Origin: an uncultured Clostridium sp.
GTDB lineage: Bacteria; Bacillota; Clostridia; TANB77; CAG-508
DNA length: 64,000 bases
Direction of reading: 5' to 3'
Assembly: GCA_900553125.1 (NCBI GenBank)
Contig: USCB01000001.1
Coordinates: 69,088-133,087, forward strand
Shown here: piece after piece, positions 59,912 through 60,618 of the stretch
How positions within the stretch are numbered: the first letter of the stretch is position 1
Layout: each line of letters opens with the position of its first letter
The notes under the pieces: model-generated
Told to the model about the DNA's origin: nothing
Databases searched by the model: none
Seen by the model: only the letters and a program-made list of their open reading frames with translations
Translations under genes and position numbers: made by a program

Positions 59912-59941
59912 TTGACATACAAGCATATTTTATGCTATTAT
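59912..59941 (+). promoter_or_regulatory. strong sigma-A-type promoter driving the tandem-repeat RNA
   Basis: TTGACA (59912-59917), 18-nt spacer, TGc-extended TATTAT (59936-59941). Confidence 0.5.
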
Positions 59942-59970
59942 GAATATAATAATAAAGAACATCATTGTTA

Positions 59971-60078
59971 AATAAATGTGTTTGTCGCCGCCCCTTTGGC
60001 GAGTTATAAATGAGAGAGTGAATAAATGTGTTTGTCGCCGCCTCTTTGGCGAGTTATAAATGAGAGAGTGAATAAATA
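59971..60078 (+). ncRNA. candidate type III antitoxin RNA: 2.2 tandem 50-nt repeats
   Basis: Units 59971-60020 and 60021-60070 differ at one base (C59993 / T60043); a partial third unit spans 60071-60078. Each unit has a GC-rich hairpin TCGCC-N8-GGCGA and A-rich junctions (GAATAAATG). Confidence 0.55.
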
Positions 60079-60081
60079 ATG

Positions 60082-60105
60082 AGGCTTACCGTTAATGGTA
60101 AGCCT
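60082..60105 (+). terminator. hairpin between the repeat RNA and the toxin ORF (attenuating terminator candidate)
   Basis: 9-bp stem AGGCTTACC / GGTAAGCCT with a 6-nt loop. The T-tract is weak. Confidence 0.4.
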
Positions 60106-60126
60106 TATACTGTATAAGGAGGAAAC

Positions 60127-60618
60127 ATGCAAATAGACGTAGGAAAATTTTATTTTATAAAAGACGAGTTCTTTGAAATTGTAAATGATAAAGAATTAAT
60201 GAAAAATAAAGAAAATGGCATAAAAAGACCTTGTTATTATTGTTTTAAAAGCAAAGAAAACGAAAAAATAATATGGTTTATACCTGTAAGTACAAAAATT
60301 GATAAATACGAAAAAATATATAATAATAAAATTCAAAAACAAAAAGAATTAGGAAAAAATCCTTCTGTTGATACTATTGTTTTTGGTTTTGTAGCTAATA
60401 CATATAGTACATTTTTAATACAAAATATGTTTCCAGTTACAGAAAAATATATTGAATGTAAATATGTAAAAAATAAAGTGGAAATAACAGTATCAAATAG
60501 ATTGCAAGAAGAGATAATATTTAAAGCTAATAAAGTATTAAATTTATATAAGCATGGAATGAAAAACATAGTGTTTCCAAATATAAACAATATATTAAAA
60601 AAGCTCGAAAATAGCTAA
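60127..60618 (+). CDS. ToxN/AbiQ/CptN-like type III toxin (endoribonuclease) candidate
   Basis: 163 aa with an AAGGAGG RBS. The pattern FYFIKDEFFE...RPCYYCF...IWFIPVSTKIDKY...LIQNMFPVTEKYI parallels the AbiQ/ToxN layout (FY.VKD.YI.YL...RPY.G.V...YF.PLSSPK...N..NMIPV). Supported by the tandem-repeat context. Confidence 0.55.
   Translation: MQIDVGKFYFIKDEFFEIVNDKELMKNKENGIKRPCYYCFKSKENEKIIWFIPVSTKIDKYEKIYNNKIQKQKELGKNPSVDTIVFGFVANTYSTFLIQNMFPVTEKYIECKYVKNKVEITVSNRLQEEIIFKANKVLNLYKHGMKNIVFPNINNILKKLENS

Follow-up and report, generated by a model that had tools for sequence, protein, structure and literature searches.

Between positions 59912 and 60618 of the window, by which I mean the whole stretch of 64,000 nucleotides that was analysed, a promoter, a short array of direct repeats, a GC-rich hairpin and the gene for a 163-aa protein follow one another on the forward strand. 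The features are as follows.

59912-59941, + strand: sigma-70-type promoter, consensus match 11/12 (-35 TTGACA at 59912-59917, 18-nt spacer, -10 TATTAT at 59936-59941)
59942-59970, + strand: leader from the promoter to the first repeat, its presumed role judged by comparing its sequence with the leaders of relatives
59971-60020, + strand: cptI unit 1, 50 nt in the phase given by Tandem Repeats Finder, covariance model 63.9 bits (stem S1, 59985-59990 with 59997-60002; stem S2, 59992-59996 with 60014-60018; A-rich loop L2, 60003-60013, including UAUAAAU)
60021-60070, + strand: cptI unit 2, 50 nt, covariance model 64.3 bits (S1, 60035-60040 with 60047-60052; S2, 60042-60046 with 60064-60068)
60071-60077, + strand: partial third repeat AAUAAAU, 7 nt, the 3' junction and presumed cleavage site of unit 2
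60079-60108, + strand: GC-rich hairpin with a core of 9 bp at 60082-60105, 5 G-C pairs and a 6-nt loop
60116-60122, + strand: Shine-Dalgarno sequence AAGGAGG, 4 nt before the ATG
60127-60618, + strand: cptN, putative endoribonuclease toxin of 163 aa with an ATG start, from profile, PDB and fold matches

The open reading frame, already noted with its 163 aa by the first-pass annotation, had a single NCBIfam match, NF047359 ('type III toxin-antitoxin system CptIN family toxin'), an equivalog model that it covered over positions 1-150 of 150 with a score of 164.3 bits against a cut-off of 90. Its only PDB sequence match was CptN of Eubacterium rectale (4RMO_A, E 1.4e-24, residues 7-161 against 5-154; HMMER). 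A Pfam scan of the ORF at E <= 1 and a PADLOC scan each returned zero matches, which rules out ToxN/AbiQ and leaves CptN unaffected, since only NCBIfam holds a CptN model. An AlphaFold model built on a 49-sequence alignment reached a pLDDT of 88.9 and a pTM of 0.85 (pLDDT 37 from the single sequence); its top Foldseek match was 4RMO_A (E 3.6e-12, TM 0.81/0.85, 35% identity), ahead of chains of MazF and CcdB at a TM of about 0.45, and the same relationship of CptN to the MazF and CcdB folds is described by Rao et al. (2015; PMC4627078). The first-pass annotation had read the locus as a type III toxin-antitoxin candidate of the CptIN type, a reading that was upheld by the profile search it had proposed, by the match to 4RMO_A and by the covarying H-type pseudoknot described below. 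It had also called the motif order of the ORF ToxN/AbiQ-like, which had to be corrected to CptN-like, as no Pfam family, PF13958 included, was matched; likewise, the structure comparison it suggested recovered a type III toxin fold, with CptN 4RMO_A as top match, while ToxN and AbiQ were absent among the matches listed. Its description of the locus as unannotated can stand at most for the RNA: NCBI has given the name 'type III toxin-antitoxin system CptIN family toxin' to a member of the same 90% cluster, and the assignment of the protein to the CptN family is therefore not new.

The active-site cage of E. rectale CptN (CptN_Er) is made up of Ser51-Ser52-Arg53, Asp81, Ser85 and Tyr104 (Rao et al., 2015; PMC4627078), which in the HMMER alignment fall on Ser55, Thr56, Lys57, Ala90, Ser94 and Tyr113 of the window toxin. 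Ser55-Thr56-Lys57 together with Tyr113 are taken as the putative active site, with Lys57 in place of Arg53, Ala90 in place of Asp81, and Ser94 aligned with Ser85. Ser55, Lys57 and Tyr113 were invariant in 49/49 aligned relatives and Thr56 was conserved; given this invariance, Lys57 is the normal residue of the clade and not a lesion. Nei-Gojobori estimates of dN/dS against eight relatives of 74-94% identity ranged from 0.09 to 0.18, which indicates that cptN is under purifying selection.

Repeat array and pseudoknot units

Tandem Repeats Finder returned one array at 59971-60077 (period 50, 2.1 copies, 98% matches, score 207), whose end lies 49 nt ahead of the toxin ATG on the same strand, and which bears out the earlier description of two near-identical 50-nt repeats plus a partial third. 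The two full units differ at a single position, C at 59993 versus T at 60043, and the GC-rich hairpin that had been noted in every repeat was recovered as the stem UCGCCG/UGGCGA in each unit. A search of 59500-60700 against Rfam 15 at E <= 10 gave only chance matches, to snoU31b and Plastid-rpoB.

Relatives of the locus were collected as 80 loci from metagenome-assembled genomes of gut Clostridia, and nearly all of them have a repeat array upstream, placed equally far from the start codon, with a period of 50-51 nt where the toxin was >= 70% identical to that of the window and of 48-49 nt at about 50% identity. A covariance model was built from 23 hand-picked aligned units, using the hairpin stem S1 only, and was searched against the window and 82 loci. 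This gave 157 matches, all on the + strand and all upstream of a toxin gene apart from the weakest (L062:3490-3526, E 0.008). Within the 64-kb window the model matched only 59977-60024 and 60027-60074, and in the whole 1.58-Mb genome it again matched just these two units. The array and its layout are therefore more than chance, since the model is unique to two sites in the genome and the layout recurs upstream of the toxin homologues examined.

Base pairs were then counted on an alignment of 150 units, 62 of them distinct. The units conform to an H-type pseudoknot in which S1 has 6 bp and S2 has 5 bp, the latter joining the hairpin loop of S1 with a segment 11 nt downstream of S1. Over the 62 distinct units this pseudoknot was 96.5% paired and 9/11 pairs had changed on both sides, against 35-60% pairing in controls with the partners slid by 1-3 columns, and 0/500 shuffles reached the observed values. 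S2 was 98.1% paired with 5/5 pairs covarying (variants include CUCUU/GAGAG, CCUAU/AUAGG, CCUGC/GCAGG and UUAGG/CCUAA), and as S2 was absent from the search model the alignment had not been fitted to it. Covariation thereby shows each unit to have the predicted fold of an H-type pseudoknot with an A-rich L2 loop. The core of L2, A-Y-A-A-R-U, was nearly invariant, and so was the UG after S2.

The one base that separates the two units of the window falls in S2: in unit 1, C59993 lies opposite A60017 as a C.A mismatch, while in unit 2, U60043 pairs with A60067 and restores the U-A pair. Either C or T was seen at this S2 position among the contigs encoding the identical toxin (L083-L092). The number of full units also varied among such contigs, with one unit in L083, L084, L085, L088 and L089 and two in L086, L087, L090 and L091. 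A copy-number polymorphism of one versus two units is not claimed here, as all one-unit contigs of the identical toxin are MEGAHIT k141 assemblies, so that unit number is confounded with the assembler and the repeats may have collapsed. One-unit arrays also occurred in SPAdes contigs of relatives (L001, L025 and L030).

In about 40 related loci (L038, L043-L068 and L070-L080), where the array lies ~100-200 nt ahead of the toxin start, the two 48/49-nt units of one array were only 61-85% identical. Between such units, 2-6 pseudoknot pairs had both partners replaced, as in CCTAT/ATAGG versus CCTGC/GCAGG. In papers of 2025 and 2026, the repeats of cptI are said to be near-identical, and repeats that differ from one another are regarded as characteristic of tenpIN.

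The ends of the units were compared with the processed RNA of E. rectale, in which a CptI_Er unit ends in ...UUGA with a 2',3'-cyclic phosphate on A45, the next unit starts with AAG, and G44 stacks on Tyr104 of CptN_Er (Rao et al., 2015; PMC4627078). In the 62 distinct units, the two bases 3' of the downstream strand of S2 (S2b) were U in 62/62 and G in 60/62, followed mostly by A-A. By analogy, cleavage would occur after UGA, between 60021 and 60022 and between 60071 and 60072, and processed unit 2 would span 60022-60071. The leader ends in a similar but imperfect junction (UUAA↓AUAAAU, the arrow marking the presumed cut) with A for G two bases before the cut: at UAA↓AUAAAU, between 59971 and 59972, the adenine and the downstream motif are kept and the G is absent. 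Because this 5' junction reads UAA↓A instead of UGA↓A, the 5' end of unit 1 may stay untrimmed. The junction with the leader, the one between units and the partial repeat at the end of the array have only the sequence AAUAAAU in common, and its presence there fits a recognition element. A terminal partial repeat was present in all related arrays inspected.

Promoter, hairpin and proposed control of the toxin

The near-consensus promoter named in the first-pass annotation was the best promoter-like site between 59600 and 61000 in a promoter scan. A TG at 59933-59934, one base upstream of the -10 hexamer, makes up an extended -10 element (TGcTATTAT, 59933-59941), and transcription would be expected to start at about 59948-59950. 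In the loci compared from the clade with 50-nt units, the same -35/-10 pair was found, and its spacing to the first repeat was constant.

The 9-bp hairpin reported between array and toxin was found at 60082-60105, and folding extended it to 12 bp at 60079-60108. On the + strand the terminator scan did not score it as an intrinsic terminator, a U-run being absent 3' of the stem; the scan scored it on the minus strand only. A hairpin at the matching position was the predicted minimum-energy fold in all related loci folded (-11 to -26 kcal/mol) except L064, which has a ~65-nt insertion between hairpin and start codon. The stem sequences were unrelated between clades (GGCUUACC, GGGGUCUA, AUCUACCUU, GGGGGCUAUU and GACCUGCC), which argues that the conservation of the hairpin is structural. 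Most of the related hairpins look like intrinsic terminators, as a T-run follows them, and a palindromic terminator is the role given to this element in cptIN loci (Blower et al., 2012; PMC3401426). The hairpin is presumed to be an attenuator or terminator that sets the ratio of RNA to toxin; as the U-tract is poor in the subclade of the window, read-through may be high here. In L064 and L066 an insertion of ~65 nt, judged against sister loci such as L046, separates the terminator hairpin from the cptN ribosome-binding site. A further small hairpin could form in the window between CCUUAU and AUAAGG (60103-60119), overlapping both the Shine-Dalgarno sequence and the 3' side of the main stem.

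Taken with what is known of the family, these features suggest the following mechanism. One promoter would transcribe the 2.1 repeats, the hairpin and cptN, and the hairpin, although a weak terminator at this locus, would probably stop or stall part of the transcripts as in the family at large, leaving antitoxin RNA in excess of toxin mRNA. CptN, a predicted endoribonuclease of the Kid/MazF fold, would by analogy cut the precursor at the A-rich junctions, most likely at UGA↓AUAAAU, to give 50-nt units. Each released unit would fold as an H-type pseudoknot with its A-rich L2 loop and may stay across the active site of CptN, producing an inactive ring of protein and RNA such as the 2:2 assembly of the E. 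rectale structure. If the supply of RNA failed, through loss of the locus, shut-off of transcription or phage infection, free CptN would be expected to cleave cellular RNA and arrest growth. It is in this sense that I infer toxicity, neutralisation and phage defence for the locus.

Genomic context, distribution and decay

With high confidence, then, the locus can be regarded as a complete, apparently intact and self-contained type III toxin-antitoxin cassette of the CptIN family. Points that weigh on the other side are the missing U-run, the Lys and Ala at two cage positions, the imperfect 5' junction and the C.A mismatch of unit 1, the empty PADLOC scan, and the failure of the cptIN loci tested in E. 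coli to give phage resistance. The cassette resides in a genome of 1.58 Mb in 54 contigs (98.6% complete), flanked by an NTPase_I-T gene and by the gene for an HTH_3 membrane protein. The latter (60730-61407, directly downstream) encodes a 225-aa protein with an HTH_3 domain at the N-terminus, its C-terminal half being hydrophobic. It was considered as a third component and rejected, as it adjoins cptN only in L001 (the closest strain) and in contigs with the identical toxin; not being adjacent to cptN in other loci, the HTH gene is placed outside the system.

The identical toxin was found on 23 metagenome contigs examined, one of which (L085) differs in its upstream genes and its promoter-leader but keeps the same downstream genes. 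A CptN match was present in 22/41 related genomes, in 0-3 copies, several with internal stops or fragmentary. In a sister genome (G015) with an HTH gene 99% identical to that of the window, all that is left at the site is a single degenerate unit whose S1 is broken, together with the hairpin and the final ~40 nt of cptN, and a different cptIN with its own pseudoknot repeats lies elsewhere. This remnant (L103:2698-2830) is homologous to 59973-60618 of the window, and its promoter region has been replaced by a 429-aa ORF. Such patchy gain, loss and decay are as expected of a dispensable toxin-antitoxin cassette.

The same pattern raises the question of whether the window locus is itself a relic, in which the architecture is kept and the toxin is attenuated or the module unexpressed, and the two parts have ceased to function as toxin and antitoxin. 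Pseudogenes and fragments of CptN are common in related genomes, a decayed remnant occupies the same site in the sister genome, the U-tract of the hairpin is weak, and two cage residues are substituted (Arg to Lys, and Ala aligned with Asp81 of CptN_Er). Against this, the ORF is intact and of full length with a dN/dS of 0.09-0.18, Lys57 is invariant across 49 relatives, the promoter matches at 11/12 positions, both pseudoknots are intact and the identical protein recurs on the 23 contigs; a relic is accordingly improbable, and the intact cassette remains the preferred reading.

A second, divergent cptN was seen in the genome of the window, at the start of contig 52 (L082:36-523, 130 bits to NF047359). 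It starts 35 nt from the contig end, where its array is cut off, and the covariance model found no cptI units in this genome besides the two of the window locus.

Relation to known type III systems

Blower et al. (2012; PMC3401426) described 33 cptIN loci, all of them on chromosomes, whose repeats measure 40-48 nt and number 1.9-3.4 copies, and defined the locus by a promoter, tandem repeats, a palindromic terminator and a toxin. The window follows this definition except in its unit, 2 nt longer than the range given there, and in its terminator, which is poor in U. The promoter-repeat-hairpin-toxin layout recurs in the homologue loci examined. A rival reading takes the repeats for a cis-acting leader, a structured attenuator of downstream translation or termination, rather than the source of a trans-acting antitoxin RNA. 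Repeats, hairpin and ORF are presumably co-transcribed, and the alternative CCUUAU/AUAAGG hairpin at 60103-60119 could mask the ribosome-binding site, although it is not conserved in relatives. This reading is nonetheless very improbable: the gene downstream is a CptN homologue, and its relative in the crystal structure binds just such a pseudoknot made from a repeat; the conserved motif at the junctions, like the partial repeat that ends the array, accords with processing into units; and one to three identical modules are unlike known leaders. Membership of the ToxIN/AbiQ or TenpIN family instead of CptIN, which the layout common to all three families and the ToxN/AbiQ-like motif order proposed at first might suggest, has next to no chance of being correct, as Pfam was empty at E <= 1 with ToxN_toxin (PF13958) unmatched, the sole NCBIfam match was CptIN, the sole PDB sequence match was CptN 4RMO, and ToxN, AbiQ and TenpN chains were absent among the Foldseek matches listed.

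The closest known system for the CptIN cassette is that of E. rectale, in which CptN processes CptI, the two assemble as a 2:2 complex and the pair is cognate-specific (Rao et al., 2015; PMC4627078). Both are chromosomal loci of gut Firmicutes with a promoter, ~2 tandem repeats, a palindromic hairpin and the toxin gene on one strand. The toxins are 35% identical over their full length, share the predicted fold (TM 0.81/0.85), and carry a Ser-Ser/Thr-basic triad with an equivalent of Tyr104. Both RNA units are H-type pseudoknots in which S1 is GC-rich, the hairpin loop forms S2 and L2 is A-rich, and both have a G-A dinucleotide before the presumed cut (GA↓AAG in CptI_Er). The heptamer UAUAAAU in L2 of the window is the same as that in L2 of CptI_Er (AUAUAAAU), where antitoxin activity is lost on A29U substitution and on deletion of U30 (PMC4627078). 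Set against published CptIN, the differences are small. The window differs in its unit of 50 nt, against 45 nt in E. rectale CptI and 40-48 nt published for the family, in a single-stranded linker between knots of 16 nt against about 11-12, and in having no loop between the upstream strand of S2 (S2a) and the downstream strand of S1 (S1b). It also has Ser-Thr-Lys in place of Ser-Ser-Arg, Ala for Asp81, and a hairpin without a clear U-tract.

ToxIN of Pectobacterium atrosepticum and Bacillus thuringiensis and AbiQ/antiQ of Lactococcus resemble the window in having a toxin with a Kid/MazF-like nuclease core that processes a repeat RNA into inhibitory pseudoknot units. In contrast, ToxN/AbiQ have no sequence similarity to the window toxin detectable with Pfam, and ToxI units are shorter (about 34-36 nt), present in more copies and assembled as 3:3 heterohexamers. 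TenpIN of Photorhabdus and others (PMC13682666, PMC12283969) has units of ~50 nt in ~2 copies with an A-rich L2, and a 2:2 assembly that counts as a likeness to CptIN, while its toxin belongs to another family without a profile match here, and its TenpI repeats often differ from one another, in contrast to the single-base difference between the two units of the window.

The clade with 50-nt units, marked by its 16-nt linker, by the lack of a loop between S2a and S1b and by its Ser-Thr-Lys triad, might be a distinct CptIN subtype, in which the longer RNA could give the inhibitory ring a geometry or stoichiometry other than that of the 2:2 complex of E. rectale; this is an unlikely proposal. If it held, the number of units (1, 2 or 3) and the C/U polymorphism in S2 could tune the release of the toxin, for example as a trigger of abortive infection in small-genome gut Clostridia. 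The locus is a well-supported addition, with a clade of many distinct sequences, to the least-studied of the structurally solved type III families, and it leaves the understanding of how type III systems work unchanged. Its pseudoknot model, which rests on 62 distinct units from a region with no Rfam 15 match, could seed an RNA family and so allow annotation of the antitoxin half, which is missed by protein-based pipelines. The cassette is likely one of addiction or defence in uncultured gut Clostridia with small genomes, gained, lost and decayed between close relatives.

Addiction, or stabilisation, is the only function shown for the CptIN family: the E. rectale locus stabilises plasmids but did not make cells resistant to the coliphages tried (Rao et al., 2015; PMC4627078). 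Abortive infection has been proven as a role of ToxIN and AbiQ and not of CptIN; as the cptIN loci tested in E. coli gave no phage resistance, phage defence by the window locus is put forward as a hypothesis that is unproven family-wide. No phage-borne cptIN is listed by Blower et al. (2012; PMC3401426), and a tblastn search of the window toxin against GenBank phages gave no match. Six IMG/VR contigs labelled viral (L095-L100) encode relatives of CptN with 36-54% identity in the promoter-repeats-hairpin-toxin layout, and some of their arrays consist of non-identical, compensated units.
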